Source: a virus
Direction: 5' to 3' (one strand)
DNA: 64,000 nt
Virus record (IMG/VR): IMGVR_UViG_3300025508_000006
Span: 32,001-96,000 of that record
Shown: positions 26,923 through 54,243 of the stretch, piece after piece
Numbering within the stretch: the stretch's first letter is position 1
Layout: every line of letters starts with the position of its first letter
Position numbers and translations under genes: made by a program
Notes under the pieces: generated by a model
What the model was told of the DNA's origin: nothing
The model's input: the letters and a program-made list of their open reading frames with translations, nothing else
Database searches by the model: none

Positions 26923-27153
26923 ATGTCGCGCTACGTTAAAGTAGATGGTGTTCCTGGGTTAGTTCGAGATATGGAGTCTAATGCGTTAATAAACGTAAAT
27001 TCTCATGAGATCGAACTTGCCCAGAAACAAAAGAGAATAAGAGAGAAGTCTAAAATAAATCGTCAAAACTTAGAGGATACAGTAGAAGTACTTCAGAAAG
27101 ATATGTGTGAAATAAAGGAAGCATTAGCAATATTGCTTTCCAGAAGCATATAA
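26923..27153 (+). CDS. Small conserved hypothetical protein (coiled-coil C-terminus)
   Basis: KVDG..GLVRD..SNALIN...EIK..L..LL, the kind of ORF that usually follows the DUF4815 gene. Confidence 0.7.
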   Translation: MSRYVKVDGVPGLVRDMESNALINVNSHEIELAQKQKRIREKSKINRQNLEDTVEVLQKDMCEIKEALAILLSRSI

Positions 27154-38191: not shown

Positions 38192-38933
38192 AGGTTATGT
38201 TATTGTAGCATCACGAAAGAAGTTTTTTTATGTCTCTGCCATTAATTTGATGGAGTCAATCAAAGATTATTATCCTGAAGCACAGATTACATTTGTAGTA
38301 GAAGAAAAGTTTCTTGACGGACAAGAAAGAATTGCAGACAATGTTATATTCTGCGACGATCATGCTAGAGCAAAACTGATTGGTATGGCAAAGTCTCCGT
38401 ATGATATAACGTTTTATGTCGATGCTGATATAGAATGTGAACATGAAGACATTGCAACTATCTTTGATAAACTTGATGGACACGATTTGATGTTTACTGG
38501 TTTACCTGCTGATAGGCATTATTGCTATGCCGAGGTGTTCTTCGAGGGTGCAAGAAAACCAGACGGCACTAAAGCAGGATTTGAATTGTGTGGTGGTGTT
38601 TGTCTATATGATATGCGTAAACCCTTAGTTCGTTCATTCATGCAAGATTGGTATGACTTGACTGTTGCTCAGTACGGTAAAGTTTGGTGGCCAACATTAG
38701 AAGATGGAGTGACCGAAGATTTAGAAAATTATCCTGCAACTCTGAAGAGATGGGATCAATTCTCACTGTGGTGGTTAGTCAATAAAGAACCTAAGTACAA
38801 AGATTTGAAAGTCGGTATACTAGAAGACGATGCTCGGTGGAACTTTTATTCCAAATATAAATATGATCACAACAAGGATCCTGTCGTATTGAGACACTAT
38901 TCTTCTTCTGGAGCAAAGCAACTGGATTTTTAA
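38175..38933 (+). CDS. GT-A fold glycosyltransferase-like protein
   Basis: GYVIVAS....Y..A.NL..SIKDYYP, SPYD.T.YVDAD (DxD), GGV.LY, WDQFSLW, RWN and terminal HYS. Confidence 0.75.
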   Translation: MSEPTKGYVIVASRKKFFYVSAINLMESIKDYYPEAQITFVVEEKFLDGQERIADNVIFCDDHARAKLIGMAKSPYDITFYVDADIECEHEDIATIFDKLDGHDLMFTGLPADRHYCYAEVFFEGARKPDGTKAGFELCGGVCLYDMRKPLVRSFMQDWYDLTVAQYGKVWWPTLEDGVTEDLENYPATLKRWDQFSLWWLVNKEPKYKDLKVGILEDDARWNFYSKYKYDHNKDPVVLRHYSSSGAKQLDF

Positions 38934-38935
38934 AT

Positions 38936-39610
38936 ATGATGAAAAATATACCACTGAATGATTATGCAATTAATCTTCTGAACGAAGCACTTTGGTTTAC
39001 TAAGGAAGAGAACTACAGTGCTGTTATTCCTTCTAAGATAAATGATTTAGATAAAGCAGATTGGTACACTGGTCAAGAATATTTCGAGCAGATTAAGGGC
39101 GAGGGCAGACAACATGATGGGTTCCCCGCTTTCGTTACTAGTTATTCATTCAATCAAGATTATAGGTTTGATCCTCGTAATCCACATATTGATCGAAAGA
39201 TAGCAGAAGTTGCAGATCATCATGGCAAGTTGATGACTAATATACAGACCGCTTTCAATCTTAAAAAGAATGCTCTGTTCTCTGTATATCCGCCCGGTGG
39301 TTATATCTCATGGCACAACAATGCGAATGCTTCGGCATATAACTTTATATTCACTTACAGTGAAACTGGTGATGGTTGGTGGAAGCATTGGGATCCAGTC
39401 AATCAGAAAATGATTCACATTCCTGATGTTAAAGGTTGGCAATGTAAAGCAGGACACTTCGGTGCATATGAAGATGGACCCGAATCCCTAGTATATCACA
39501 CTGCACGTAATGGTGAAAGCGGAATACGTATGACAATTGCCTTTGTATTAGATCGATCAGAGATGTCTTTAGGTATACAAGATTGGGTAATTGAAGATAT
39601 ACACGTCTAA
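38936..39610 (+). CDS. DSBH/2OG-Fe(II) oxygenase-like protein
   Basis: YPPGGYISWHNN, distal YHTA and R.TIAF strand, typical of the jelly-roll oxygenase layout. Confidence 0.6.
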   Translation: MMKNIPLNDYAINLLNEALWFTKEENYSAVIPSKINDLDKADWYTGQEYFEQIKGEGRQHDGFPAFVTSYSFNQDYRFDPRNPHIDRKIAEVADHHGKLMTNIQTAFNLKKNALFSVYPPGGYISWHNNANASAYNFIFTYSETGDGWWKHWDPVNQKMIHIPDVKGWQCKAGHFGAYEDGPESLVYHTARNGESGIRMTIAFVLDRSEMSLGIQDWVIEDIHV

Positions 39611-39615
39611 ACTCT

Positions 39616-39635
39616 TATAAATAAACCTATAAATA
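39616..39635 (+). promoter_or_regulatory. Tandem T4-type late promoters
   Basis: TATAAATA at 39616-39623 and 39628-39635. Confidence 0.75.
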
Positions 39636-39662
39636 TCTCAATAGTATAGCGGATAAAGACGA

Positions 39663-40022
39663 ATGGCACACTACGAAGTATTAACAATTAATCAAGGCAC
39701 AGATGTTTCTGTTGAACTGCATCTGGTTAATGTCGATAACTCAATAAAAGACTTGACAGGACATAATGTAACTGCTAAACTTGGCACTCATTATGATGCT
39801 AAAGACTCTGACAAAACTACTTTTGTTTCTTTAGTGGCAAGTCCACCAACGAGTGGCATTGTTAACCTTTCTTTGACTAACACAGTCACTGCCGCACTTA
39901 ATCCTAAGAAGCGTTACGTTTATGATGTTGAAATATCCCATATTGATAGTGACACAAGTAACACTATCGTCGAACGGGTGATGGAAGGACTTATCACTAT
40001 TACCCCTTCAGTAACAACATAA
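39663..40022 (+). CDS. Virion structural protein (BppU N-terminal-like Ig fold)
   Basis: INQGTD...DLTG...LSLT...T..L...YVYDVE...RV.EG.ITITPSVT. Confidence 0.6.
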   Translation: MAHYEVLTINQGTDVSVELHLVNVDNSIKDLTGHNVTAKLGTHYDAKDSDKTTFVSLVASPPTSGIVNLSLTNTVTAALNPKKRYVYDVEISHIDSDTSNTIVERVMEGLITITPSVTT

Positions 40023-40031
40023 AGGTTAACC

Positions 40032-41117
40032 ATGCCAGCACCAATAGATCAGACATATAAAGTAGTCGTCGGAAATCTCACGAAGGTAAAACGTGTTGTT
40101 GTCGGCATACCTATTACTAGCGTAGTTGCCGCCGGTGCTGAAGGTCTAGACATTGACAACATCGCGGGTATTGACACTACCGGAGCAGTCAGTGGCGATC
40201 TATTAATATACAATGCGATTACTGATGCATGGGAATCAAATAAGTTACTAAACGAAAATCAGATTATAGATGGTAAATACTATCCTTCTGATTCCGCACA
40301 CGGTCTAATACTAACACGTAGAAGCGCAACGAGTGGAGAACCACCTTATCTTCGCTCTGGTGAGATGGCGTACTCATGGTTAGTTGATTCTGCTACAGAT
40401 GGATTTGGTAATGGCGGACAGAGATTATACATCGGTGTAGGAGCAGACTCTACTTATCCCGATGGAACTGTTCGATCAGAATCGCTTGAAGTTATTGGTG
40501 GTTCTTACTTCACAAATCTTCTTAATCATCAAGCAGGTATTAATACTGCTAACAGTGCATTAATTGTTGACTCGAATGGTAGAGTTGACTCTTTAATTGT
40601 AGATACATTAACAGCAATTAATCTTACAGCAACTGGAACAACAACTCTTGATTCAGCAGACATTGGACCATTAACTGTAAGAAACAACGCATTATTTGAT
40701 TCTGATGTTAGAATATCCGGTAATCTAATTGTAGATGGCGACACTACATTTGTACTGGATGTTACACTTGATTCAACTTTAGTTAACGGTGATTTAACCG
40801 TAAACGGTAGAACTTTTCTTAATGCAAATGGCGAGTTCTACGTTGATAGCGTACAGATTGAACAATATATTGATAGTAGTGTTAATCGATTACTGACACC
40901 AGGTAGTGCGATTTCTTTATTATACAGTGATAGCGAAAATACTTTAACAGTAAGTGCTATCTCAACAGATTCGGCAGTACTGGGTGTTGCATCGTTTAAT
41001 GCGATTGCAGGAGATTCTTCTCAAACTGCCAAACAATTTACAGTAGTCGATGGTGCAGTTAGTGTGAATATACTTGATGGTGGATTCTTTGGTAATGATT
41101 CAGCGTATCCAGGGTAA
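40032..41117 (+). CDS. Tail fibre-like structural protein
   Basis: RRS...P..L..GEMAY...RLYIG motif, beta-rich GNL.V.G repeats and an IDGG-like end. Confidence 0.6.
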   Translation: MPAPIDQTYKVVVGNLTKVKRVVVGIPITSVVAAGAEGLDIDNIAGIDTTGAVSGDLLIYNAITDAWESNKLLNENQIIDGKYYPSDSAHGLILTRRSATSGEPPYLRSGEMAYSWLVDSATDGFGNGGQRLYIGVGADSTYPDGTVRSESLEVIGGSYFTNLLNHQAGINTANSALIVDSNGRVDSLIVDTLTAINLTATGTTTLDSADIGPLTVRNNALFDSDVRISGNLIVDGDTTFVLDVTLDSTLVNGDLTVNGRTFLNANGEFYVDSVQIEQYIDSSVNRLLTPGSAISLLYSDSENTLTVSAISTDSAVLGVASFNAIAGDSSQTAKQFTVVDGAVSVNILDGGFFGNDSAYPG

Positions 41118-41170
41118 TTTAAAGACACTAAATAGAAACACTAAGAGCATTATAACAGGATATAATATCA

Positions 41171-43498
41171 ATGTCAACCACTAAGTTACTAAATCGAAGA
41201 ACTAATGTCCCAGGTCAGTTGCCTGGTATTTCAGACATTAGTCTTGGTGAAATAGCGATCAACACGCACGAAGGTAAAATGTACCTCAAGCGTGATAAGT
41301 TTGGCGTAGTTGATATAGTTCAAGTAGGTGAAGATGCAGTAGAGAATGTTTTTTATGTTTCTAAATCTGGTGAGTTTGGTAATTCAGGTACTTCTCTTGG
41401 CGACTCTTTCAAAACTCTTGACTCTGCTGTATCTACAGTCACCACTCTAAAAACATTTGCATTTGACGAATCTTTATGTAGTCGTGACTTAGGTTACATC
41501 TTTGACGGACTGTATCTTGACATTGCTTTCGGAACAAACTATAATGCAGTAACATCTGGTCACGCTTATCAAAGAGCAGGATCAACTAAAGTTACAACAC
41601 AGCAATTACAACCTACTAGAGTAGCGTTTAACCAAGCACGAGGCGCTGTCGGTTCTGTTCCTGAAGTAAAAGCAAGTACTGGTATTACAGGAGCATTGTA
41701 TAGAAACAATGCTCACTGGTCAGAAATAGTAGATATTCTTATTAACGGCAAGGTGAGTACAGAGCAGGCACATGACGATCTAGTCTTTCCGCCTCCTGCG
41801 GTATTACCTACAGCAGATGCTGACGATGCTGCCATCATTCTCCAGAACAATCGAGAATGGTTAAAAGGTGAACTTATAGCATTCATTACTGCAAACTATC
41901 CTTTAGCATCATACGATGAAACTCTATGCCGCAGAGACATAGGATTTATTGTTGATGGTCTAACATTCGACATATTATATGGTGGTACTCACGCCATCAC
42001 TATTAACACCCGCGCCTATTTTATCGGTGCTGTAAGTCAGTTGAGCGATGGTGAAGTTCCTGCAACAGTTGCCGCATATGAACATATGAGAGATGTACTA
42101 GTTGAACTTTTCACTAACAGTCTAACTAGTAATATTACTGCTTCGGCAGATGAGACTGGCAATTCTGGACAGTATGCTACTTCCACCGAAAGTACTATTT
42201 TAACAACATTACTCGATGACATATTAATTGACACACTAGTTGCTGGTAATCTTAATAGTTTACCTGCCGCTGTTGAACCTATTCTGACAAGTCGAGGAGT
42301 AAGTGCTGAGTTAAGAACTGCTATTTCTTCAGTTAAAGATACCGAAGATCAGATTATTCTTCAGTCGGTAAAGTCTGCTAAGAATACTGGTGACACTACA
42401 ATCTTCTTGAAGTCTGGTGATTATCAGGTAAACAATCCTATTAAGTTACCACCTAAGACAGCAATTGTTGGTGACAACTTGAGAACGACTACTATTCGAC
42501 CAAAGAGCGTTGACTCTGACATATTCTATATGGATAATGGTTGTTTCATTAAAGACGTTACTTTCCGAGACCATCAGAACTTTGCTGCCTGTGTAGCATA
42601 TGATCCCAAAGTAGATAGTGCTGGCGCTGGTCCATTCATCGTTCAATCACCCTACGTTCAGAACTGTACTTCTATTACCAACGATGGTATCGGTATGAAG
42701 ATTGACGGATCTAAATGTTCTGGATTGAAGTCGATGGTATCAGACGCATTCACACAGTACAATGCCGGTGGTATCGGTACGTATCTCTTGAATCGTGGTT
42801 ACGCACAGTTAGTATCTATCTTTACAATCTCAACACAGACTTCTATTCTTGCTGAAACTGGTGGACAATGTTCTATTACGAACAGTAACTCCTCGTTTGG
42901 TGACTTCGGACTAATTGCTCGCGGTAGTTCTCAAGTACTGTATGACGGTGTACTTGATAACAATCAACTTTTGTATGATGATACAATTCGTATTTCAAAT
43001 GTGATAAATAGAGATAGTGCTGATTATTTCGGAACTGTCGGTCAAACTAAGTTGCCAAACTACGGTGATGCAATGAAGTTTGATAGTGAAGAATATTATT
43101 ATACAGTGTTGGGTGTTGATTCTGTTGGTGGTGGTGTATATGACATCTCTTTCGAACCTGGACTGAATAGTAATAAATTAGCAAATCAAGAGATAACGTT
43201 CAGACAGCGATCTCAGATCACATCATCTTCGCACACATTTGAATATGTGGGTGCTGGAACTAACACGTTTACTGCTATTCCTCAGAATGGTGGTATACCA
43301 ATACCAGAAAGCGAAGTAGTATACGATGTTGACACAAACGAAGGTTTAGTAGTATTCACATCGACGGATCAGTTAGGCGACTTTAGAATTGGTGCAGAAC
43401 TGACAATTAAAAGACAAGAAGGTAGAATTGTAGGTGAGACGTTTGAACGATCTCTATACGCTATTCTAACTCCATATATTCTAGCACTAGAAGGTTAA
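41171..43498 (+). CDS. Tail spike/fibre protein with pectin-lyase-like beta-helix
   Basis: N-terminal GEIAINT.EGK.Y; FYVSKSG; G.Y....PI..P....IVGDNLR; SPYVQNCTS; FTQYN.GG.G; SHTFEYVGAG; STDQ.GDFRIG. Confidence 0.7.
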   Translation: MSTTKLLNRRTNVPGQLPGISDISLGEIAINTHEGKMYLKRDKFGVVDIVQVGEDAVENVFYVSKSGEFGNSGTSLGDSFKTLDSAVSTVTTLKTFAFDESLCSRDLGYIFDGLYLDIAFGTNYNAVTSGHAYQRAGSTKVTTQQLQPTRVAFNQARGAVGSVPEVKASTGITGALYRNNAHWSEIVDILINGKVSTEQAHDDLVFPPPAVLPTADADDAAIILQNNREWLKGELIAFITANYPLASYDETLCRRDIGFIVDGLTFDILYGGTHAITINTRAYFIGAVSQLSDGEVPATVAAYEHMRDVLVELFTNSLTSNITASADETGNSGQYATSTESTILTTLLDDILIDTLVAGNLNSLPAAVEPILTSRGVSAELRTAISSVKDTEDQIILQSVKSAKNTGDTTIFLKSGDYQVNNPIKLPPKTAIVGDNLRTTTIRPKSVDSDIFYMDNGCFIKDVTFRDHQNFAACVAYDPKVDSAGAGPFIVQSPYVQNCTSITNDGIGMKIDGSKCSGLKSMVSDAFTQYNAGGIGTYLLNRGYAQLVSIFTISTQTSILAETGGQCSITNSNSSFGDFGLIARGSSQVLYDGVLDNNQLLYDDTIRISNVINRDSADYFGTVGQTKLPNYGDAMKFDSEEYYYTVLGVDSVGGGVYDISFEPGLNSNKLANQEITFRQRSQITSSSHTFEYVGAGTNTFTAIPQNGGIPIPESEVVYDVDTNEGLVVFTSTDQLGDFRIGAELTIKRQEGRIVGETFERSLYAILTPYILALEG

Positions 43499-43504
43499 AG
43501 AAAA

Positions 43505-43876
43505 ATGGCAACTCCACTCAATACGTTTAAGTCAACTTCTGTTACTGTTGTTGGTAAAGATACGCTTACTGGCGACAGCGATTTAGTCTATACTTCACCC
43601 AACGGAATCACGGCGATTGTGTTGATGGCGCAGGTAGCGAATATCGACTCTGCTGGTACTGGTACTTTCGAGGTTAATATGCAACAGTCGCTGTCACTGG
43701 CAGCACCAGCAGTTCACTTGATTAAAGGTTATCGAGTTGCGCCTCGTGATGCAGTAAGTCTGATTACAGGTAAGTTAATTATTGAAGAAAACGGTGTTAT
43801 CCGATGCTCAACTAATGCGGCGGGTGCTGGCAAACTGCAATTAACTCTAAGTTATTTGGAATCATTAAATGGTTAA
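43505..43876 (+). CDS. Small virion structural protein
   Basis: LN.FK...VYT.P....AIVL.AQVAN...GKL..E...LS.LE pattern. Confidence 0.6.
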   Translation: MATPLNTFKSTSVTVVGKDTLTGDSDLVYTSPNGITAIVLMAQVANIDSAGTGTFEVNMQQSLSLAAPAVHLIKGYRVAPRDAVSLITGKLIIEENGVIRCSTNAAGAGKLQLTLSYLESLNG

Positions 43877-45113
43877 TACAATAAGCGTTTCGGGCACTTC
43901 TCTTACAGGTGGTGTATCCACCAGACCAGTAGAGGATCTCGATTCAGCAAGATATGAGTATATCACTCTCGATCAGGTAGAACCGAGTCCTGGTAATCCG
44001 ACAACTGACGGTCAAGTTCTCACGTCTCTTGCTGATGGTACTCGTTCTTGGGGGGACATATCAAGACTTACGCTTAATGCCCTTAACTTCACGTCACTAG
44101 ATTCCGGTGAAGTTGGCGACGAATATGCACTATTCGTAAAGAACAATCCTTTTGATGCTAATGCAGATAGTGTTGTTGTTCGTAAGATTGGTGCAGGTGC
44201 ATTTGCTGACACAGCAAACGAGACTCTAGCAACTGTCACCGCACGAGGCGATAGCACACAAGTCTACTCGTACTTCTACGGTGGACTATATGCTGATAGT
44301 GTAGTAATTGCTGGTAATCTTACTGTTAGTGGCACACAAACAATACTTAATACCGCAACATTAGAAGTCGATGATCTAAACATAGTTATTGCTAGAAATG
44401 CGACTAACAATGCTGAAGCAGAAGGTGCTGGTATTACAGTTGCAGGTGCTAATGCGGGTATTACATATGCATCTACAGACAACTCATGGAACTTTAATCG
44501 TCTAACTAACTTTGAGACAGGTCTTGCAGTAGTAGGACCATCTTTATTTGATTCAGTAACTATTGATGGCGAAGTTGTTATCAATAATACAGATGCATCT
44601 GTCACTGCTACATTCGGTTTATTCTTAGAACCCACCACAAATAGACTTGTTACACGTACCATCTCAACAGATATTCTTGATGGAACAATTGAATTAACTC
44701 AGGTTGTATCGACCGATCAAGACTTAACATTCTATCCTACATTTGTAAGTGTACTAAATGGCGGAGATAGTGCCAAAGTTGATAGTGCATTAACATATAA
44801 TGCTTTTAGTAATAGACTTACTCTTGGTAATCTTTCTTTAACTCAGATTGATAGGGACCAAGAGACCGATAACGTGCTTGTACTTTCTGCACAAGACTCT
44901 GTATCGTTCAGAGAATTGGGCAATCTTGCTTATCTCGATTCAGAGCAAGACACACTACAATCTGTAACCAGTCGAGGTGCTACTAGTACAGACAGCGTAA
45001 CTTTCGCGGGTATACATGTAGAGGGTGATATCGAAGCGAGTCGCTACTTTGACGCTTCGGCAAGACAATTAGTAATTTATGACTCAGTAGGTGCTACTCT
45101 CTGGGGTGCATAA
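43869..45113 (+). CDS. Tail fibre-like protein
   Basis: DG.RSW, L..VT.RG, GNLTVSGT...N...L.V.D..I and GAGI motifs. Confidence 0.65.
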   Translation: MVNTISVSGTSLTGGVSTRPVEDLDSARYEYITLDQVEPSPGNPTTDGQVLTSLADGTRSWGDISRLTLNALNFTSLDSGEVGDEYALFVKNNPFDANADSVVVRKIGAGAFADTANETLATVTARGDSTQVYSYFYGGLYADSVVIAGNLTVSGTQTILNTATLEVDDLNIVIARNATNNAEAEGAGITVAGANAGITYASTDNSWNFNRLTNFETGLAVVGPSLFDSVTIDGEVVINNTDASVTATFGLFLEPTTNRLVTRTISTDILDGTIELTQVVSTDQDLTFYPTFVSVLNGGDSAKVDSALTYNAFSNRLTLGNLSLTQIDRDQETDNVLVLSAQDSVSFRELGNLAYLDSEQDTLQSVTSRGATSTDSVTFAGIHVEGDIEASRYFDASARQLVIYDSVGATLWGA

Positions 45114-45139
45114 ATAACAGATAAACATTGGAGTAACAA

Positions 45140-45895
45140 ATGGCATCGCCAGATTCAAGACAAGATTTAATCGACTTCGCTCTACGTAGATTGGGCGAAC
45201 CTGTAATTGAAATCAATGTTGATATAGATCAAGTTGAAGATAAGGTTGATGACGCTCTTCAAAAATATCAAGAGTTTCATAGTGATGCAACACTTAGAAC
45301 TTATCTCAAGCACGAAGTAACTAGTACTGATGTTACTAATGGATACATTCCGTTAAACGCAAACATTCAGTGGGTAAAGAGATTGTTTCCTCTGAATTCA
45401 TCGTTTGGTTCAGGCGGCAATATGTTTGATCTAAAGTATCAGATGTATTTAAACAATATGGCAGACTTCTATAGTTTTGCGGGCGATCTATCGTACATAT
45501 ATCAGATGGAACAATATCTAAGTATGATTGATCAGCAACTAAGTGGAATGCCTCAAGTACGCCACTCACGTAGAGAAGGTCGTCTATACATTGACGGCGA
45601 TCTTGCTGACGGAGATATTAAAGCAGGCGATTATGTTATTGCTGAAGTATATCAGATCATTGATCCGGAAGTACACTTGAGCATATGGAATGATATGTTC
45701 ATGAAAGATTATACCACACAATTAATCAAACAGCAGTGGGGCGTTAATATGTCCAAGTTTGAGGGAATGCAATTGCCGGGTGGTGTTACTATTAGTGGTC
45801 GTCAATTGTATGAAGACGCGACTGCTGAAATCGAGAAACTTGAAGAGAAATTACGTCTCGAACAAGAACTCCCAGTTGACTTTCTGATAGGATAA
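45140..45895 (+). CDS. 13: Neck protein gp13
   Basis: L..FALRRLG.PVIEINVD.DQ, KQQWG.N..KF.GMQLPGGV...G. Confidence 0.93.
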   Translation: MASPDSRQDLIDFALRRLGEPVIEINVDIDQVEDKVDDALQKYQEFHSDATLRTYLKHEVTSTDVTNGYIPLNANIQWVKRLFPLNSSFGSGGNMFDLKYQMYLNNMADFYSFAGDLSYIYQMEQYLSMIDQQLSGMPQVRHSRREGRLYIDGDLADGDIKAGDYVIAEVYQIIDPEVHLSIWNDMFMKDYTTQLIKQQWGVNMSKFEGMQLPGGVTISGRQLYEDATAEIEKLEEKLRLEQELPVDFLIG

Positions 45896-45896
45896 C

Positions 45897-46799
45897 ATGG
45901 CAACTAATCTTTACTTCTCACAGGGCAGAAAGTCTGAGCAGACTCTCTACGAAGATATCATTATTGAGTCTTTGAAGATGTATGGTCAGGACGTTTACTA
46001 TGTCCCGCGTGAACTGGTCAACAGAGATACAATCTTTGGTGACGATAGCACTTCACGATTCGACAATGCTTACCGTATAGAAATGTACATAGAAGGTGTC
46101 GAAGGATTTGATGGTGAAGGTGACTTGTTCGCTAAGTTTGGAGTAGAGATTCGAGATGCTGCCACATTCATTATGGCAAGACGCCGATGGTTGAACACTG
46201 TTGCTTCTATAGAAAACACTTTAGAAGAACCGTTCTATCGTCCGAGAGAAGGCGATTTGATTGTCTTAACATTGTCTAACTCTATCTTCGAGATTCAAAA
46301 AGTAGAAGACGAGACACCATTCTATCAGTTAAAGAATCTTCCTGTGTTCCGTATGCGATGTGAATTGTTTGAATACAACGACGAAGATTTTGATACGGGT
46401 GTTGGAGAGATCGATGCAATTGAGACTGTACACGCATACAGTTCTACGCTTATATTTGATGAGACAACATTTAGTGTAGCAAATAGTAAGTTTGAGATTG
46501 GCGAAGAGATATCACAGGTCAATGCAACTTTCACTATGAATGGTGAGATTGTTAATATTGATGCTTCTGTTCCAGGAACATATAAGGTCTATGTTTCTCA
46601 CGGTGGTGCCACCGATGGTCTTTATCATAGTTGGGCAGCATCATTACCTGTAGTAGGACAGAGTTCAGGAATCAGTGAAACCCCAACATCAGTTGGCAGC
46701 GAGAACTTAGAAGTGGATAATCAGAATGCAATCTTTGATACGGTTGCAACAGACTTCATCGACTTCTCTGAGTCTAATCCGTTTGGAGATCCAGTATAA
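45897..46799 (+). CDS. 14: Neck/head-closure protein gp14
   Basis: EQ.LYEDI.IES.KMYG.DVYY.PR, RPREGDLI, FYQL, CELFEY and DFSESNPFG. Confidence 0.93.
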   Translation: MATNLYFSQGRKSEQTLYEDIIIESLKMYGQDVYYVPRELVNRDTIFGDDSTSRFDNAYRIEMYIEGVEGFDGEGDLFAKFGVEIRDAATFIMARRRWLNTVASIENTLEEPFYRPREGDLIVLTLSNSIFEIQKVEDETPFYQLKNLPVFRMRCELFEYNDEDFDTGVGEIDAIETVHAYSSTLIFDETTFSVANSKFEIGEEISQVNATFTMNGEIVNIDASVPGTYKVYVSHGGATDGLYHSWAASLPVVGQSSGISETPTSVGSENLEVDNQNAIFDTVATDFIDFSESNPFGDPV

Positions 46800-48088
46800 T
46801 GTTAGGTTCACACTTCTATCACCAAAGAATTAGAAAAGCAGTTGCTGTATTCGGTTCATTGTTTAATAACATAAACGTCATACGTAAGAATACCGCAGGC
46901 GAAGTTATTAGTCAAGTAAAAGTTCCTTTATCTTATGCACCAAAGCGCGACTTTCTCACACGCATGGATAATATGCTTAACGGTGAGACGAACGAAAGAC
47001 AGATAGCATTGAAACTGCCTAGAATGTCATTTGAGATCATAGCAATGAATTATGATCCAGTAAGACAATTACCTAAGATGAACAATTGTGTTAAAGCGCC
47101 GACAACGTATACTGGTTCAGCAACACAACTATACACTCCTGTTCCATACAATGTAAACTTTCAGTTGAACGTGTATGGTAAAAGTCAGGATGATGTATTA
47201 CAAATTATAGAACAGATTCTACCCTATTTCACACCACAGTATACTGTAACAGTAAAACCTTTATCGGAGTACGATGTCAAGGAAGACACCCCCATAACAA
47301 TGACGGGTATCACTTTCTCTGATGACTATGAAGGTCAGGTTGAGAATAGACGTTCTATCATATATACACTTGACTTCGAAATGAAGATCAGTTTGTATAA
47401 GGGTGTTGCGGCATCAGGTACTATTATAACAAGTGCTGATATTAACGTTAAAGATTTAGAAGGCAATGACTTGTTCACTACATCTTTGGTAGGTAACATT
47501 ATAACAGGTACGAGTGGTACACTAGCAAACGAAGATGGTGGCACAATAACACAAGCATTCAAGATTGTTAATGCGCAGAGTAGAGTAACCTCATTTACAA
47601 TCGGCACTGCTCCTACAAATGGCACCGCAATTGCTAATGCTGATACAACTATAGTAACGCCTTCGGGTGGGTTTAACGCTACTGGTACTTGGTCATATAT
47701 TCCTGATCCAGATTTCTCGGGTTCTGACTCATTCGTACTTGATGTAAATCTAGTAGACGGAACAAAACTCGAACAGACAATCAACGTCACGGTAACTAAT
47801 GCGATTGATGATGCTATCAATGTTGTAGCGTCAATTGACACTGGTGTTGCATTATCAATTGATATTGATGTTGGTGCTAATGATTCATTCGAGTCTACTT
47901 CTATTGTCTACTCTATACCGACAGGTGGTGCACCAGATAATGGTGTAGTAGCAATACAAGATTCAGTGAATGGAATAATTCGTTATACTCCTGATAGTGG
48001 GTTTACAGGAGTCGATATATTCACATATAGAGTGACACCAAGTACAGGACAAGTAGAAACTGCAACAGTTACGATAACCGTGACTTAA
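46799..48088 (+). CDS. 15: Tail terminator gp15 with two C-terminal Ig/cadherin-like domains
   Basis: FG.LFNNI, KVPLSYAPK, LPRMSFE and QIIEQILPYF.P; C-terminal Y.PD..F.G.D.F repeats. Confidence 0.9.
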   Translation: MLGSHFYHQRIRKAVAVFGSLFNNINVIRKNTAGEVISQVKVPLSYAPKRDFLTRMDNMLNGETNERQIALKLPRMSFEIIAMNYDPVRQLPKMNNCVKAPTTYTGSATQLYTPVPYNVNFQLNVYGKSQDDVLQIIEQILPYFTPQYTVTVKPLSEYDVKEDTPITMTGITFSDDYEGQVENRRSIIYTLDFEMKISLYKGVAASGTIITSADINVKDLEGNDLFTTSLVGNIITGTSGTLANEDGGTITQAFKIVNAQSRVTSFTIGTAPTNGTAIANADTTIVTPSGGFNATGTWSYIPDPDFSGSDSFVLDVNLVDGTKLEQTINVTVTNAIDDAINVVASIDTGVALSIDIDVGANDSFESTSIVYSIPTGGAPDNGVVAIQDSVNGIIRYTPDSGFTGVDIFTYRVTPSTGQVETATVTITVT

Positions 48089-48093
48089 AACAC

Positions 48094-48101
48094 TATAAAT
48101 A
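48094..48101 (+). promoter_or_regulatory. T4-type late promoter
   Basis: TATAAATA upstream of the 48134 ORF. Confidence 0.8.
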
Positions 48102-48133
48102 GAATTATAGAAAACATATTCTGAGGAATAACA

Positions 48134-49726
48134 ATGGCAGGCGTAAAGATAACAGACTTAGATTCGGCAATTGGTGCACCAGCATCAGATGACGTTCTAA
48201 TTATAGTAGATACTAGCACTAACGTGACCAAGCAAATCAAAGCATCAGATTTACTTCTTGGTCAGACTGCTGAAAGAGCGAATACTATAAAGATCGCTAA
48301 CGACACAACATCTACCGAAGCGTCTATTCATTTTGGTAATGGTGTAAGTGGATCGTATGATTCTGTTGGTATTAGTAGTTCACTTCAATATAATGCTACT
48401 ACAGGTACTTTGTCTGCACTTGCATTTGAAGGTAACGGTTCTGCTTTAACTAACTTGCCACAGAATGATCCTGTCGTGAATGCGGTTGATGCGGGCGTTG
48501 ATGCTAATCCATATTATCTGATGATTCGCAACAGTGCGACTGGTCTTGACAGTGTACATACTCAGAGCAACTTAACATCTAATCCAAATACTGGTGTATT
48601 AACTTCTCCTTTCTTTGCTGGTAACGGTTCGTTACTAACAGGTGTTCTTGCTGATAGTGCAACTAATGCTGACAGCGCAAACTTTGCTACCGAAGCAACT
48701 CATGCTTTATATGCTGACAGTGCTACACAGGCAGCAAGTGCTTTATTTGCTACAAATGCAACTTATGCTGTTAATGCTGATAGTGCAACAGTCGCTACGT
48801 CCTCTTTGACTTCTGCTCTTGCTACATTCGCTCTTGCCGCTGATAGCGCAGCGAATGCAAGTAATGCGACTCAAGCACAATATGCTGACACTATTGCTAC
48901 TACTACTGCCGCCTCAGAGACAACTTTATATCCTTTCATGGGCACTGCTCAGACTGGATTACAAGCAACTCTTGCCGCTGATGCCGCATTAACATATAAC
49001 GCATCGAACGGTAGATTAACTTCAACAGCATTTTCTGGTGATGGTTCTTTACTTACTAACTTACCTATTCCTGGTGGTGGTAGTATTGCTAACGCATTGA
49101 ATGTACTTCCTTCTGCTGTAGATGCTTCACACTCCATTCTATTTGTTCAGAGTGCGACTGGTGTAGATAGTGTAAACACAGATGCGGGTTTACTGTACAA
49201 TCCATTAAGCAACTTATTAACTGTTGGTGCTTTCTCTGGTGAAGGTAAACTACTCACCGAAGTACCTGCAACAAAGATTAACTCTAACTTTAATCCTACT
49301 ACTGGCACACAGTATGTAATGATGAAAGCGACCCAGACAGGTTCTGATAGTGTATCGGTTGATGGTGGTATCGTATTTGATGCTGCCACTAATACATTGA
49401 CTGCAACGAATCTCGCAGGTAATGGTTCGAACATAACTGATGTTACTGCTACTAATGCCACTAACGCGGTCAACGTAGGAGTTACCACTATTAATGATAG
49501 TGCAACATACTATGTTCACTTGGGTTCGGCAGCATCTGGTAACGATAACACTAACGTGGATCTCAATCTAACATACAATCCTTTGCAGAATTTGATGAAT
49601 ACCGGCATCGCGTATACTACAGATAGCGCAGGTTTATGGAATGGTACCGCACCAACAACTCTTGACTCTGCGGTCAACAGATTTGCATTATTGCTAAAAA
49701 CATTAAACGGACAAGTAGGCGCTTAA
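48134..49726 (+). CDS. Repetitive fibre protein
   Basis: KITDL N-terminus; about 6 copies of a G.DSV.....L.YN.....L....F.G.GS.LT module; Ala-rich ADSA repeats. Confidence 0.7.
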   Translation: MAGVKITDLDSAIGAPASDDVLIIVDTSTNVTKQIKASDLLLGQTAERANTIKIANDTTSTEASIHFGNGVSGSYDSVGISSSLQYNATTGTLSALAFEGNGSALTNLPQNDPVVNAVDAGVDANPYYLMIRNSATGLDSVHTQSNLTSNPNTGVLTSPFFAGNGSLLTGVLADSATNADSANFATEATHALYADSATQAASALFATNATYAVNADSATVATSSLTSALATFALAADSAANASNATQAQYADTIATTTAASETTLYPFMGTAQTGLQATLAADAALTYNASNGRLTSTAFSGDGSLLTNLPIPGGGSIANALNVLPSAVDASHSILFVQSATGVDSVNTDAGLLYNPLSNLLTVGAFSGEGKLLTEVPATKINSNFNPTTGTQYVMMKATQTGSDSVSVDGGIVFDAATNTLTATNLAGNGSNITDVTATNATNAVNVGVTTINDSATYYVHLGSAASGNDNTNVDLNLTYNPLQNLMNTGIAYTTDSAGLWNGTAPTTLDSAVNRFALLLKTLNGQVGA

Positions 49727-49768
49727 CACTAAGTCTAAATAACAGAAAGTATTTGAGGAAGAATAGAA

Positions 49769-50431
49769 ATGGCAGATATTAAAATATCGGCACTACCAGT
49801 ACTAACATCAGCGGTTGATTCTGATGTTATTGTTATTAATGACGTAAGTACTGGATCAACTAAGAAGATTACTCGCGGTCTTTTGTTAAATCATCTAGCA
49901 AAACAACTGCGAGACTCTGCTGATGGCGGTATTGTCATTCCGAATGGTGATCTTACTCTTGCTAACGAACTTATCGCTGGTGGTGACATCTCTACTTCAG
50001 GTACAATTAACTTTGGTATCTTACGTGATTATGTCAACAACACCTATGCAACTTCGATTGTAGATTCTGCGGGTGGTTATGATCTGAGTGATAGTGCTTT
50101 AACTACAACTCAGTCTGTTGTTCAATATCTTGCGACACACACATCTGATCTAATTAAAATTGATTCTGCTGGACCTACACTCACTACACTATATCCAGTA
50201 ATGACAAGTATTGTTACGGGCGAAGATAGTGCGAGAACTGATACACAACTATCATACAATCCACAAACAAATATCTTAACTGCGGGTTCATACTCTGGTT
50301 TAGGTAACTTGCTTGGTTACACTACAGATAGTGCAGGACTATGGACTACACCCGCGCCAACAAATGTTAAAGACGCGATAGACAGATTAGCACTAGCAGT
50401 TAAAACACTCAATAGTCAAGTAGGCGCTTAA
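49769..50431 (+). CDS. Short fibre protein, paralog of 48134..49726
   Basis: Shares the KIS.L N-terminus and the YTTDSAGLW..AP.....A..R.AL..KTLN.QVGA C-terminus. Confidence 0.7.
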   Translation: MADIKISALPVLTSAVDSDVIVINDVSTGSTKKITRGLLLNHLAKQLRDSADGGIVIPNGDLTLANELIAGGDISTSGTINFGILRDYVNNTYATSIVDSAGGYDLSDSALTTTQSVVQYLATHTSDLIKIDSAGPTLTTLYPVMTSIVTGEDSARTDTQLSYNPQTNILTAGSYSGLGNLLGYTTDSAGLWTTPAPTNVKDAIDRLALAVKTLNSQVGA

Positions 50432-53400
50432 TGCACAACGTTTTTACAGATAAGCGGCGGAGACATCTCAATCTGCGCGAACCGCAGGTGCAGGGCGTTC
50501 TTCCCGAGCATTTTGTTACTGCTTATCCGAAGTTCATAAAACTTCTTGAGGAGTATTATGAGTGGCAAGGTCAGTACGAGTCTACCGAACTTCTCAATCA
50601 CCTATTCGCATCTCGTGATATCAATGAAACTGATGTAACATTACTTTCATTTATTGAAGACGAGTTGCTTTTAGGTGAAAATTACTTCGAAGGTTTTGGA
50701 CAATCCGAAGCAGAGAAACGTGCTGCCGCAAACTTTTCTAGCACACTGTTTCGCGCAAAAGGTTCTAAGTTTGCTATTGAATGGTTCTTCAGATCGTTCT
50801 ATGGTTTGGATGCAGAAGTTCTTTATCCTAAAGAAGACATATTTAACGTATCGGATAATGACTCGCGCATTGGTCCGGACTATCTAAACTATCTTACAGA
50901 TGATAAACTATATCAAACATATGCTTTGCTTATTCGTGTAGGTATACCTATCTCACAATGGTCAGAAGTATTTAAGAAGTTTGTACATCCTGCAGGAATG
51001 TATCTTGGCAGTGAAGTATTACTTTCTAGTAATAATATTAGTAACATTATTTTAGATGATGATAGTGCTGGCAGTATACAACGAACTGCTATGTCATATT
51101 CGATTACTAATGACGGTCCTACTGATGAAGGACAAGCAACAACTTTTCAGATTATCGGCAATAATGTACCCGAAGGCACAGGTGTTGTATATGCTTATGT
51201 TACTCACGGTTCAACTACTGACTCAGACTTTCCTCTCAACGCATTGACAATACCCGCACACGGTCCTAACAATCGTTACCCCGCAATTAGTAGTAAAATA
51301 CCACTGCTAAATGATAGTGCAGGACCTGCGTTAATAAATATCAACGATGATAGCGCAACTTTCTCAATAAGAAGTTGGATTGATAGTGACGGTGGTGCTA
51401 GTAGCGACAACTATACATTGAATATTATTGATCATGAAGGCAGATCATTAGACAGTACGCTTATTACTATTAACAACGTCGAACCATCTTACTCTTTAGT
51501 TGCAGATCCCTCGTCGCCACTTGAAGGTGATGTTATAACATGGACAGTCACAGGAACAAACACTCCTTACGATGGTGAGACTACTTTGTTTTATCATGTA
51601 GTTCATGGTGACACAAACGATTCAGACTTCAGTGTTCCTCCTCAACAAGACGCGGATCTACAGAGTGGTGCGGCATTAGTAACTTTATCTGGTGGAATTG
51701 GTTCGTTCACACTTAAAACTATTATTGATGGAGCATCAGATCCCGACGAAGAATTTACTGTTAATATTAGAGACTCTAAGAAGTTACAAGTTGCAAGTAC
51801 AACAGTTTCTGTAACACAAGTAGCAAGTGATTTTACAATTAGTGCTGACGATATAGTTGAAGGTGCATCACTCGTACTTAATATCACTGTAAATCCAGCA
51901 GAAATCGGGGACTCGCTGACATATGTTATAACGAATGGTGATTCTCGAATCGCACCTCTTACAGACACCTTTGTTGTTCCCTCTGAAGGCGGTGGTACAT
52001 TCGTTAAAGTTATACCCACTGAAGTTAGTGATTTATATCAAGGAACTGTAACGCCTACTGTCACTGTAACCAATAACGTAACTAATATTTCAGTACAGAC
52101 CACATTTGATTTAACTGATGTGACTCCAGTATGGGGAATGACATCTGATCCAGAATTTGCTGTAGAAGGTAATACAATCACTTTCTCAGTAGACGGAACA
52201 AATATTCCTGATCCTTCTACCGTATGGTTTGAAATACTTCACGGCACAACTACTAATGCGGATTTCACAGTAACACCTCCGCAGACAGGTACACGCTCAT
52301 CAACTGTTATTAACGATCCGGGTGATACAGTCAAGCAGTTGACAATTGCAAGTGATAGTGAAGTTGGTGATGAGACATTTACTGCACGTCTATATGATGC
52401 GGAGACCGGTGGTAATCTTCTAGCATCTATCCCTTATGTGATACAAGGCACTAACACTTCATATGCTTTATCTCCTAGCGTCTCTTCGGTCAATGAAGGT
52501 GGTCAAGTTACATTCACCTTTACCACGAATCAGGCAGATGGTACATACTATTGGTATATTCCAACATATTCTGGGTATACAATACAAGAGGCAGACTTTG
52601 CTGGTACTATAGGTACAAATACCAATAGAGGTTCATTTGTTGTAACTAGCGGTACTGGTACTATTGTTGTCGATTTAGTTAATGATTCACTTACCGAAGG
52701 TGCGGAAGCATTCAATGTTCTTGTAGCATTGTCTCCGAATGGAAGTGTACCTCCTGTTGTGTCTAGTGGAACTGTCACAGTAAATGATACTTCTGCCACG
52801 ACATTTACCCTTACTCTGAATCCTGCCAATCACGGACAGAGTACTAGCATTACTGAAGGTGCGACTGCATTTCTCCTTATTAATGCAGACACCAATCAAC
52901 CGAATTTACAGACGAATTATGTAGAGATTACTGGTTCCGGTGTTGTAGGAAGATTCCCTGTACAACAGAAAAATGTTACTAATGGTCAGTATCCTAACAG
53001 TCTTTCTTTCGCAACAACGAATAGTAATACCTATCAAGGTTCGCAAGTTGTTACTGCTAAACTATCTACTGGTAACTATGCATCTCTAGGCGGAACAGTA
53101 CTTGATACACTCACGTTCAATCTACTTGATCAAGCACCTGCAATGACATTGACACCTAACGCTACGACTGGTGATGAAGGCGATACTATAACATATACTG
53201 TTAGTGGAACTAACATTCAAGACGGTACTTACTACTGGTACGATCCTGCACTAGTTAAAACTGTCGATGTTCCTTTCGGTCTTGGTTCCGGCACATCACA
53301 AATTAATCACCAAGGATCGCAAGTCGATGTAGAAATAGGAATGTCAACTGATGATGCTAATATACCGGGCACAGTTACTGGCGTATTTGCAGATTATCTC

Positions 53401-54243
53401 ACAATGTCTGATCCCACAACTAGGGCAACAGTTACAGGCGAGCATATAAAGTTTGCGTTTCCTGATAACTTTGCTGACGCAACTGAGATTTATGGTACTG
53501 TAGCAGTTTCAAGCAATTCTGGCACCTTTGAGTTAGATACTCTTGAGAACAGTGATTATGCGGATGATGTCTATACCATGCGTGTTTTTGATAATGAATT
53601 TCAGTATAACTTCAGCGGCACGAATCTTGGTCTTGCCACTGCCGCAACTGTTACTATTGCAGACACTAATCCAATAGTAGTTCAGATTGCAGAGACCTAT
53701 ATATCTGGTTCTGATACTGGTCAGGATTATAGTTGGGGCAGAGAAAATGCCAACCCTGCCATTGCTATGTACCTCTTCAATAATGGCATGTTTGGGTACC
53801 AAGGCGTTAGCAGTAATGACTCGTATATTTCTCCTCCAGAAGCGCGTGGTCCTGATGATGGTAAAGACTATCAAATGCTGGTCAGAGTATACACTAACTC
53901 TGCTAGAACGACTTTATATACTCCGGGTGCTTCTGTTGGAACCATGGGTGCTACCATGACTGGTGGAATACACTACGATCCTTCTACTAATCCTTCATAT
54001 GATGGAATTACCTGGACTAATGCATCTAATCAATGGTTTAAATTAGGGGAACAACCTTCGAACAATAATAGTTTTACAAGATTTGACTTTGCGGGTGAAG
54101 TCTCTTCGCTCTCAACAAAAACTGCGAATTTGTATGTAACGACAGTAATTAAAGAGTACACCGGAACATTAGGTACGGGTACTACGCTACATACTAACAA
54201 CACTTTAGAATTATTCTTAACCGGAAGAGTAGAAACAAGGTAA
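50431..54243 (+). CDS. gp7-like baseplate wedge protein with multiple Ig/Calx-beta-like domains
   Basis: LPE.F...YPKFI..LEEYYEW, FRAKGS..A...FFR..YG, YP, YQ.YA and VHPAGM; then repeated EG..ITF.V.GTN modules and NDSLTEGAEAF. Confidence 0.7.
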   Translation: MHNVFTDKRRRHLNLREPQVQGVLPEHFVTAYPKFIKLLEEYYEWQGQYESTELLNHLFASRDINETDVTLLSFIEDELLLGENYFEGFGQSEAEKRAAANFSSTLFRAKGSKFAIEWFFRSFYGLDAEVLYPKEDIFNVSDNDSRIGPDYLNYLTDDKLYQTYALLIRVGIPISQWSEVFKKFVHPAGMYLGSEVLLSSNNISNIILDDDSAGSIQRTAMSYSITNDGPTDEGQATTFQIIGNNVPEGTGVVYAYVTHGSTTDSDFPLNALTIPAHGPNNRYPAISSKIPLLNDSAGPALININDDSATFSIRSWIDSDGGASSDNYTLNIIDHEGRSLDSTLITINNVEPSYSLVADPSSPLEGDVITWTVTGTNTPYDGETTLFYHVVHGDTNDSDFSVPPQQDADLQSGAALVTLSGGIGSFTLKTIIDGASDPDEEFTVNIRDSKKLQVASTTVSVTQVASDFTISADDIVEGASLVLNITVNPAEIGDSLTYVITNGDSRIAPLTDTFVVPSEGGGTFVKVIPTEVSDLYQGTVTPTVTVTNNVTNISVQTTFDLTDVTPVWGMTSDPEFAVEGNTITFSVDGTNIPDPSTVWFEILHGTTTNADFTVTPPQTGTRSSTVINDPGDTVKQLTIASDSEVGDETFTARLYDAETGGNLLASIPYVIQGTNTSYALSPSVSSVNEGGQVTFTFTTNQADGTYYWYIPTYSGYTIQEADFAGTIGTNTNRGSFVVTSGTGTIVVDLVNDSLTEGAEAFNVLVALSPNGSVPPVVSSGTVTVNDTSATTFTLTLNPANHGQSTSITEGATAFLLINADTNQPNLQTNYVEITGSGVVGRFPVQQKNVTNGQYPNSLSFATTNSNTYQGSQVVTAKLSTGNYASLGGTVLDTLTFNLLDQAPAMTLTPNATTGDEGDTITYTVSGTNIQDGTYYWYDPALVKTVDVPFGLGSGTSQINHQGSQVDVEIGMSTDDANIPGTVTGVFADYLTMSDPTTRATVTGEHIKFAFPDNFADATEIYGTVAVSSNSGTFELDTLENSDYADDVYTMRVFDNEFQYNFSGTNLGLATAATVTIADTNPIVVQIAETYISGSDTGQDYSWGRENANPAIAMYLFNNGMFGYQGVSSNDSYISPPEARGPDDGKDYQMLVRVYTNSARTTLYTPGASVGTMGATMTGGIHYDPSTNPSYDGITWTNASNQWFKLGEQPSNNNSFTRFDFAGEVSSLSTKTANLYVTTVIKEYTGTLGTGTTLHTNNTLELFLTGRVETR

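Follow-up and report, generated by a model that had tools for sequence, protein, structure and literature searches.

The DNA analyzed here, called the window below, is a 64,000-nucleotide (nt) stretch of an IMG/VR record from an uncultured aquatic T4-like phage, and the dipeptide Asp-Ser (DS) was counted in its open reading frames (ORFs). Part of the window holds a set of tail fiber genes, four of them DS rich. The relevant features, with ORFs named by their first nucleotide, are as follows.

38169 to 38933, plus strand: weakly GT-A-like protein in the giant-fiber cassette (Pfam GT2, E 0.11; Atlas neighbors)
39616 to 39635, plus strand: two TATAAATA late-promoter-like boxes, starting the unit that holds ORFs 39663 to 45113
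39663 to 40022, plus strand: small ORF, tail fiber assembly protein-like (PHROG 1084 and 3304); 2 DS against 0.8 expected, not significant
40032 to 41117, plus strand: DS-rich fiber protein, 361 amino acids (aa); 14 DS among 32 Asp, 3.2 expected
41171 to 43498, plus strand: tail fiber/spike-like protein between DS-rich genes (PHROG tail fiber families)
43505 to 43876, plus strand: small ORF directly upstream of ORF 43869; 2 DS against 0.4 expected, not significant
43869 to 45113, plus strand: DS-rich fiber protein, 414 aa; 12 DS, 3.3 expected
48094 to 48101, plus strand: late-promoter-like box upstream of ORF 48134
48134 to 49726, plus strand: DS-rich fiber protein, 530 aa; 13 DS, all DSA or DSV, 3.2 expected
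49769 to 50431, plus strand: DS-rich short paralog of ORF 48134, 220 aa; 7 DS among 19 Asp (six DSA), 1.9 expected
50431 to 54243, plus strand: gp7-like baseplate wedge protein (PF23786); 14 DS, 8.1 expected

Late-promoter-like boxes number 12 in the window against 5.3 expected, others lying at 27149, 38856, and 48094. Of the large genes in the late unit beginning at 39616, ORF 40032 comes first; it matches PHROG 15769 and is 28% identical to the tail fiber of phage Melnitz, which is itself not DS rich. The small ORF that precedes it, 39663, was found in 65 of 65 related loci, including DS-poor ones, and ORF 43505 co-occurs with homologs of ORF 43869. ORF 48134 matches PF06598 (31.8 bits; Pfam cutoff, 27), while ORFs 40032, 43869, and 49769 have no Pfam match. 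The protein encoded between the DS-rich genes, ORF 41171, has a weak pectate-lyase-like match.

An initial sequence-only reading had reported the DS excess from hand counts, all of which were reproduced by our recount (14 of 32 Asp, 12, 13, 7 of 19 Asp, and 14 for the gp7-like protein). Pooled, ORFs 40032, 43869, 48134, and 49769 contain 46 DS against 11.6 expected (z of about 10), an approximately fourfold excess over chance that makes DS the most overrepresented of all 400 dipeptides. The reverse dipeptide proposed as a check, SD, shows no such enrichment (9 against 11.6). The excess also survives correction for composition: shuffles preserving composition reached the observed number in 0 of 3,000 trials for ORFs 40032, 43869, and 48134, and in a fraction of 0.0007 for ORF 49769. 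For the gp7-like protein, the excess is marginal (shuffle fraction, 0.027), and the recurrence of DS that had been seen in ORFs 39663 and 43505 amounts to two each, which is not significant.

Serine within DS is encoded by 24 TCN and 22 AGY codons, in proportions that match overall Ser codon use. As both codon classes are used, the signal lies at the protein level, as had been claimed, and a DNA repeat or a GANTC site is ruled out as its source. The four proteins are rich in Ser and Asp alike, which might suggest an artifact of composition or of repeated DNA, but we give that explanation practically no credence: it is refuted by the shuffles, by the two codon classes, and by homologs that keep the excess down to approximately 33% identity, and SD is not enriched.

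The DS pairs are isolated within the ORFs, at spacings of 5 to 108 residues. The third residue, following DS, is A at 22 and V at 11 of 45 sites; more generally, position -1 is hydrophobic or small (V, A, or L) and position +1 is A or V. DT is depleted in the four ORFs (9 against 14.1 expected), and the motif is therefore Ser specific, with the form hydrophobic-D-S-(A/V).

The sequence-only reading described the enrichment as extending across unrelated virion proteins, and this description does not hold. The remaining ORFs of the window together contain 95 DS against 103.9 expected. No excess is found in the sheath (3 against 3.4), the portal-like ORF (3 against 3.0), gp13, gp14, and gp15 (1, 1, and 4 DS), the baseplate ORFs (0 to 4), the two giant fibers (10 against 10.1 and 19 against 23.1), or ORF 41171 (7 against 4.8; shuffle fraction, 0.19). 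Moreover, ORFs 43869, 48134, and 49769 are paralogs (mutual BLASTP E values of 2e-7 to 2e-20); ORF 49769 shares both its N-terminal and its C-terminal domain with ORF 48134 (E 2e-20). A single homology network takes in 50 of the 62 distinct DS-rich ORFs of related loci. Since the giant fibers, ORF 41171, sheath, neck, and baseplate are unenriched, the excess follows a protein family rather than virion exposure.

Members of this family are modular. ORF 48134 contains modules of about 38 aa with the pattern G-x-DS-V...L-x-Y-N...G-D-G-S-x-L-T, and the same module, with DS at a fixed position, occurs in ORFs 49769 and 43869. Two copies in ORF 48134 have QA or DN in place of DS, which is therefore dispensable to the module. 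An Ala-x-x stretch of ORF 48134 displays DSA at a period of 21 residues. Other unit lengths occur among relatives: three relatives of ORF 43869 (L023, L026, and L027) carry tandem repeats of 49 aa, each with DS at two fixed places, giving 51 to 54 DS per approximately 1,000 aa, and a 2,855-aa relative with 116 DS has units of 9 to 10 residues initiated by DSA. For 10 of 44 DS sites, a related partner window could be recognized (2.2 expected), and module duplication thus accounts for about a quarter of the sites; none was recognizable for the other 34.

Structural modeling supports ORF 48134 being a homotrimeric fiber. A homotrimer model of residues 125 to 375 gave a score of 0.80, and the best of three controls gave 0.00. 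Among proteins of solved structure, 20 of 30 that form pairs of one chain attained that mark, as did 1 of 23 single-chain proteins. Contact agreement between runs was at least 89%, with a partner pLDDT of at least 70. A sequence search of the PDB returned no significant relative of ORF 48134 (best E, 0.074), which makes it unlikely that the model merely reproduces a close structure it had already seen. Modeling as a monomer did not succeed, in keeping with an intertwined fiber. Along the Ala-x-x stretch, the confident contacts in the trimer model fall on every third residue, Ala. The conserved residues D195, D216/S217, and D237/S238 are absent from the confident contacts and hence may be exposed.

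Within the clade, the motif is well maintained. Orthologs of ORF 43869 keep 12 of 12 DS sites at 59% identity and 8 of 12 at 33%, and 75 homologs of ORF 48134, most of them with PF06598, retain the excess. Conservation is 0.68 for Ser within DS and 0.30 for other Ser. Homologs at 39 to 48% identity have 5 to 8 sites in common, yet each contains 12 to 19 DS in total; their nonshared DS number 4 to 13 per protein against 3 to 5 by chance, a difference that alignment error inflates. DT is depleted clade-wide (142 against 195 expected). The third residue varies by lineage, being A or V here and in the related genome G003 and D or E in G004; across relatives the commonest residue after DS is Asp (DSD), and the longest run is DSDS. 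In distant homologs, D at the DS columns gives way to G, T, N, or E and S to N, T, D, or A.

Outside these lineages the motif is missing. Fiber homologs in the cultured phages Melnitz, Mosig, S-TIM54, and HTVC008M show no DS excess, the complete related genome G002 has no protein with an excess, and our search for a cultured relative carrying the motif found none. The motif is thus limited to one phage clade and, given the homologous fiber domains and G002 without excess, the fold itself does not require DS.

We interpret the DS(A/V) excess as a clade-specific short motif of a modular trimeric distal tail fiber family, most likely a structural hallmark, a reading to which we assign a probability of roughly 40%. 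DS would fill two noncore positions flanked by small or hydrophobic residues that point inward, in the order hydrophobic-D-S-hydrophobic. It would lie where the short strands and helices of each module begin and may act there as a cap or turn. The motif would have spread as modules were duplicated and exchanged among paralogous fiber genes, and purifying selection would retain it with no need for modification. The residues that replace DS in distant homologs are classic turn or cap residues, which counts for this structural role, as do the hydrophobic or small flanks, the fixed place of DS in several repeat types, its conservation, and the trimer model. Against it, a general cap or turn rule should allow DT, NS, and DN, which are depleted, and sites turn over at 39 to 48% identity while the DS total is maintained; the homologous domains and module copies that do without DS, the small share of sites traceable to module duplication, and the possible exposure of conserved pairs in the Ala-x-x stretch also speak against it.

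Hallmark dipeptides are familiar from degenerate repeats, such as WD in WD40 and YD in Rhs/YD proteins, as is the N-S-V-A-I-G element of trimeric autotransporter heads. Like WD and YD, DS is a specific pair that in several repeat types has a fixed place in diverged units, enriched in that family only and kept while the remainder of the unit drifts. Unlike them, the phage units are of several lengths and types, and some copies lack DS. The PF06598 match of ORF 48134 and most of its homologs is to the chlorovirus Vp260-type glycoprotein repeat. A fiber-like protein of PBCV-1 (PDB 8h2i) aligns weakly, below significance (E 0.074), at a G-(D/N)-G-S-x-L-T-x-V element, and its chain has no DS in the aligned stretches.

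The DS residues could also serve a noncovalent surface function, as regularly spaced divalent-cation sites or as contacts to a host glycan, a neighboring fiber, or an assembly chaperone. The restriction of the motif to distal fibers fits this idea, as do the conserved DSA that returns at 21-residue intervals on what seems to be the outer face of the modeled Ala-x-x stretch and the small assembly-like ORFs 39663 and 43505 directly upstream of two DS-rich genes. We nonetheless consider it improbable: searches gave no match to a cation-binding or lectin motif already known, a single carboxylate with a single hydroxyl is poorly suited to binding a metal, and ORF 39663 is also present in DS-poor loci.

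Another possibility is that DS(A/V) is a tag by which a phage-encoded cytoplasmic enzyme modifies Ser on assembled or assembling distal fibers. Its recognition sequence would be hydrophobic-D-S-(A/V), or D-S-(D/E) in sister lineages, and the enzyme would belong to aquatic T4-like phages. We regard this as a tentative proposal, less probable than the structural hallmark. Several properties of the motif argue for it: it is short and strictly Ser specific, 34 of 44 sites lie in unrelated local contexts, it is on or off by clade among phages with homologous fibers, its density is held while individual sites turn over, and its third residue differs by lineage (A/V or D/E). The genome just upstream of the window also contains a glycan-enzyme island, with four GT25 paralogs, a GT8-like protein, two radical-SAM enzymes, methyltransferases, and a 2OG oxygenase. 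Given this gene content, O-glycosylation would be the likeliest modification, and it would give the fibers a coat that might shield them from, for instance, proteases or unspecific adsorption.

The enzyme itself is where this proposal meets difficulty. The sequence-only reading had suggested as a possible decorator the glycosyltransferase (GT) at 38175. We rejected this protein, ORF 38169, as a DS-modifying GT; it is only weakly GT-A-like, and the cassette it forms with three neighbor genes recurs in all 65 related loci regardless of DS (31 with a DS-rich fiber and 34 without). It belongs, moreover, to the late transcription unit of a giant fiber that is not DS rich. The enrichment thus does not follow the GT across related loci, and DS-free G002 has the cassette together with five GT25 matches. 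A comparison of five genomes left just a lysozyme and a late-transcription coactivator as genes found in the DS-positive genomes and absent from G002. No GT-B gene (GT4, PF00534) was matched in any of the five (G000 to G004), whereas 14 of 14 control genomes matched, and no SdgB-like gene was found in them. Among the related loci and genomes compared, no gene tracks the motif. The tag proposal is further weakened by the unenriched exposed fibers of the same operons (the giant fibers and ORF 41171) and by a positional conservation of sites above that usual for surface sequons. Because the motif does not follow the suspected enzyme, a structural mark of fiber modules is at least as likely as a modification site. 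Were DS a tag, its enzyme would be one from the glycan island or an unrecognized one, and not the GT at 38169; it would probably be a glycosyltransferase from the large glycan-enzyme islands.

There are precedents for such a system. Freeman et al. reportedly described phage-encoded virion glycosylation in 2023; in the mycobacteriophage type, a GT gene would go with the marked structural proteins, but the GT-like cassette here occurs in 31 loci with and 34 without a DS-rich fiber. The soluble glycosyltransferases SdgA and SdgB add GlcNAc in the cytoplasm to the Ser-Asp repeat adhesins of staphylococci (PMC3794999), and, as in the phage motif, the target is Ser beside Asp in fibrous surface proteins. 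Their targets are, however, long unbroken (SD)n tracts, while the phage DS pairs are isolated in folded modules, running at most to DSDS, and a GT-B gene of this type (PF00534) is absent from the five related phage genomes.

T4-type virions assemble in the cytoplasm. The O-glycosylation system of Bacteroidota, whose sequon the phage tripeptides had been noted to resemble, is periplasmic and acts on exported proteins only (PMC8729774). The likeness stands in part: the order of Asp, hydroxyl residue, and small or hydrophobic residue is the same (PMC8729774, PMC8550257), and 38 of 46 sites (approximately 83%) have a third residue permitted by D-(S/T)-(A/I/L/V/M/T), in the form D-S-(A/I/L/V/M/T), which also speaks for a tag (PMC8729774). 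It is limited in that the bacterial system accepts both Thr and Ser while DT is depleted in the phage, and in that DSD, the commonest form in relatives, falls outside the sequon. The fibers, furthermore, are presumably cytoplasmic virion parts. Modification of the fibers by a host system of this kind is very unlikely; a Bacteroidota host gains no support from the bilin-reductase gene that the phage carries or from the hosts of its nearest cultured relatives, namely SAR11, OM43, and cyanobacteria.

The setting of these genes resembles the host recognition cluster that Zaragoza-Solas et al. (2020) described between baseplate and neck genes of pelagimyophages and cyanomyophages, a variable block of fiber genes interleaved with glycosyltransferases and oxygenases (PMC7029224). 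In that study, which does not report a DS motif, the cluster glycosyltransferases are held to modify host LPS, and the cluster members HTVC008M, Mosig, and Melnitz show no DS excess.

If DS is a structural hallmark only, its value hardly goes beyond that of a signature by which one modular fiber family can be recognized in phages from uncultured aquatic sources. If it instead tags Ser for modification, a function would emerge for the glycosyltransferase and oxygenase genes that abound in T4-like phages of marine and fresh waters, with those glycosyltransferases acting on the virion and not on host LPS as the literature assigns (PMC7029224). Distal fibers would then already carry a chemical coat on release from the cell, and phage biology would gain a system of virion modification directed by a sequon, with bearing on host range, on resistance to proteases and grazing, and on fiber design.

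Counting dipeptides in the 48 translated ORFs of the window confirmed a strong excess of Asp-Ser (DS) pairs in four of them, as follows.

DS-rich ORFs, with DS observed and expected
40032-41117: 14 observed, 3.2 expected
43869-45113: 12 observed, 3.3 expected
48134-49726: 13 observed, 3.2 expected
49769-50431: 7 observed, 1.9 expected

None of 3,000 composition-preserving shuffles matched the observed DS count in ORFs 40032, 43869, and 48134, and 2 of 3,000 did so in ORF 49769. With the four ORFs pooled, DS ranks first in over-representation among all 400 dipeptides (46 versus 11.6 expected). In the DS-to-SD comparison proposed in the sequence-only reading, SD stands at 9 versus 11.6, and the other related pairs were likewise not enriched or were depleted (DT, 9 versus 14.1; NS, 5 versus 11.3; DN, 4 versus 8.6). 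The residue following DS is Ala at 22 and Val at 11 of 45 sites, and the residue preceding it is mostly V, A, or L. The Ser codons at DS sites (24 TCN and 22 AGY) are proportional to overall use, which places the signal at the protein level, as originally suggested. A DNA-level cause, in which GAY-TCN creates GANTC sites, is ruled out: AGY makes up almost half of the Ser codons, and the frame bias is no more than a reflection of the DS codons.

The enrichment is real in these four ORFs but narrower than the sequence-only reading had claimed. The gp7-like protein has a marginal excess (14 versus 8.1; shuffle fraction, 0.027), ORF 41171-43498 is not enriched, and all remaining ORFs of the window, including those for the sheath, tube, portal, neck, baseplate, and two giant fibres, are at expectation. 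Outside the DS-rich four, window ORFs contain 95 DS pairs in total versus 103.9 expected, and this genome shows no enrichment of DS[DE] (26 versus 24.0 expected). The DS region comprises a distal-fibre block, neck genes, and the gp7-like wedge gene, and the genes in and near it are as follows.

45140-45895: gp13-like
45897-46799: gp14
46799-48088: gp15
50431-54243: gp7-like wedge gene
55358-57320: terminase
57407-59161: sheath

The window covers bases 32001-96000 of an IMG/VR contig (116 kb, about 67% complete) from an uncultured T4-like myovirus. In tail-sheath sequence this virus shares 47% identity with Phage C48C1 and 41-45% with OM43, SAR11, Caulobacter, and Synechococcus myoviruses. A ferredoxin-dependent bilin reductase gene lies at 112-768 of the window (PF05996, E 3e-25); such auxiliary genes typically occur in cyanophages and in certain other marine phages.

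Nor are the DS-rich proteins unrelated, as had been supposed. ORFs 43869, 48134, and 49769 match one another by BLASTP, and among 923 distinct ORFs in the fetched loci of relatives, 62 are DS-rich, 50 of which fall in a single homology network. These proteins match PHROG tail-fibre families and PF06598 and are fibre proteins; many homologues of ORF 48134 carry a Peptidase_S74 chaperone domain.

One possibility is that DS is a structural feature of these fibres. DS takes constant positions within several types of repeat. A module of ~38 residues, (T/S)-G-x-D-S-V-x-x-D-x-x-L-x-Y-N ... G-D-G-S-x-L-T, is present in six copies in ORF 48134 and in single copies in ORFs 49769 and 43869. Within an Ala-x-x stretch of ORF 48134, DSA recurs at 21-residue spacing, and a C-terminal T-T-D-S-A-G-L-W element is common to ORFs 48134 and 49769. 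Relatives of ORF 43869 contain 49-residue tandem repeats with ...A-D-S-D-S... and ...T-D-S-V-G-x-R-S-F..., reaching 51-54 DS per ~1000 residues; gain of these repeats, each with two fixed DS sites, makes the orthologous gene vary between 393 and 1134 aa in length (L023:15388, L026:11292, and L027:8486). In the related genome G003, a 2855-aa fibre (C1:66129-74696, L159) has 116 DS versus 31.5 expected, most of them at the start of 9-10-residue units, D-S-A-x-hydrophobic-x-x-hydrophobic-I; these DSA-led units and G-A-P-x-x-L-N-T-L-N-E-L-A-A-A-L elements make up much of the protein.

The sites are also conserved. Orthologues of ORF 43869 retain all 12 DS at 59% identity and 8 of the 12 at 33%, homologues still show the excess at identities as low as ~33%, and in the 48134 family conservation is 0.68 for Ser in DS versus 0.30 for other Ser. 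Distant homologues have G, T, N, or E in the D column and N, T, D, or A in the S column, residues typical of turns or caps.

To place the sites, AlphaFold2 monomer models were too poor (pLDDT, 37.6 for ORF 48134 and 33.0 for ORF 43869), as would be expected of an intertwined trimer. A three-copy model of ORF 48134 residues 125-375 scored 0.80, whereas the best of 3 controls scored 0.00. Of proteins solved as pairs of one chain, 20 of 30 reached that mark, as did 1 of 23 solved as single chains; the runs of the model have at least 89% of contacts in common, with partner pLDDT of at least 70. The Ala-x-x stretch (residues ~173-260, window 48650-48920) has Ala at every third residue over ~30 or more residues with a super-period of 21; so strict a three-residue period is at odds with a heptad coiled coil. 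Its confident inter-chain contacts in the trimer model are predicted at every third residue (185, 188 ... 203), the Ala; S196 is also a confident contact in two copies. PDB sequence searches gave no usable relative (best, PBCV-1 8h2i, E 0.074), with no match for ORF 40032 and one chance-level match for ORF 43869, and a literature search on the Pfam repeat name found nothing.

Several observations nonetheless speak against a purely structural reading. In the same trimer model, D195, D216/S217, and D237/S238 are predicted to lie outside the confident contacts in every copy. Only 10 of 44 DS sites have a recognizably related partner window (2.2 expected), and QA or DN replaces DS in two copies of the 38-residue module. 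Homologues at 39-48% identity have 5-8 DS sites in common, yet each has 12-19, and their non-shared sites exceed chance, an excess that alignment error inflates. The third residue varies by lineage, being A/V here and in G003 and D/E in G004, the sister genome to G003, where DS[DE] is enriched in three large proteins. Finally, the motif is clade-specific, which does not fit such a reading: DS is at expectation in the homologous fibres of Melnitz, Mosig, S-TIM54, and HTVC008M, and G002, a relative with a complete genome (144 kb, with terminal repeats), has zero DS-rich ORFs. No cultured relative with the motif was found: DNA matches were absent, as were protein matches to ORF 48134 and to the G003 fibre.

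That DS instead marks serines for modification is a somewhat less likely reading. Most DS sites here fit the tripeptide of the Bacteroidota sequon; unlike in that system, Thr is avoided, DSD is used by relatives, and virion assembly is cytoplasmic. The Bacteroidota sequon, D-(S/T)-(A/I/L/V/M/T), later extended, is modified only on exported proteins (PMC8729774, PMC8550257). SdgA/SdgB target long Ser-Asp tracts (PMC3794999), unlike the isolated DS pairs here, and their enzyme family is not encoded.

The enzyme named for this role, a putative glycosyltransferase (GT) at 38169-38933, is not supported. Its resemblance to GT-A enzymes is only faint (Pfam GT2, E 0.11; Atlas neighbours that include Nucleotid_trans or GT8 members), and late-promoter-like TATAAATA boxes place it in the giant-fibre unit starting at 27149, with new units of DS-rich genes starting at 39616/39628 and 48094. 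It belongs to a four-gene cassette (37718, 38169, 38936, and 39663; window 37718-40022) encoding a 157-aa protein, the GT-A-like protein, a 224-aa protein with an oxygenase-like lead, and a 119-aa fibre-assembly-like protein. We fetched 80 IMG/VR loci with a 38169 homologue, 65 of which extend at least 7 kb downstream. The cassette is present in 65/65, adjoining a giant fibre gene in 59, and a DS-rich ORF lies downstream in only 31. For the fibre block, pooled observed/expected DS is 2.2-3.5 in most loci whose GT identity is 64% or more and 0.85-1.8 at 62% or below, with one exception at 2.6; L041 has 0.79 at 67% identity. Enrichment thus follows phylogeny rather than GT presence.

Nor did any other enzyme gene track the motif. 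A Pfam-confirmed glycan-enzyme island just upstream of the window (G000:C1:20331-31596, L139) encodes two radical-SAM/SPASM enzymes, four GT25 paralogues, a GT8-like protein, two methyltransferases, a 2OG-Fe(II) oxygenase, and, at its end, a TET-associated glycosyltransferase (TAGT; E 7e-44). GT25 is equally present in DS-free G002, and the genes confined to this genome and G001 (radical-SAM enzyme, methyltransferase, 2OG oxygenase, and TAGT) are confounded with close relatedness. Across the five genomes compared, only a lysozyme and a late-transcription coactivator are common to DS-positive genomes and missing from G002, and none has a GT-B gene. ORF 38936-39610 (224 aa), directly upstream of the DS-rich block, has 2OG-Fe(II) or Asp/Arg-hydroxylase leads (Atlas 0.86-0.87) and shares a P-G-x-x-I-x-W-H element with an Asp_Arg_Hydrox protein of phage Mosig (BLASTP E 0.15), all of them faint leads to a candidate Asp/Asn hydroxylase. 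In Pelagibacter phage Mosig (MT647606; L138, 388-5390), a modifying-enzyme block (aminotransferase, TauD-like dioxygenase, methylase, N-acetyltransferase, and the Asp_Arg_Hydrox-domain protein) lies directly upstream of tail-fibre genes whose products have no DS excess. Glycosyltransferases of the equivalent pelagimyophage block were assigned to host LPS, and the DS motif was not mentioned (PMC7029224).

Taken together, the DS observation is partly confirmed, and its interpretation is not one that sequence can decide. A serine-modification tag comes second, some other surface function seems unlikely, and the remaining odds are spread over minor readings or unassigned. The reading that we favour, at a probability of roughly 0.4, is that the DS excess would be a structural hallmark of this fibre family.
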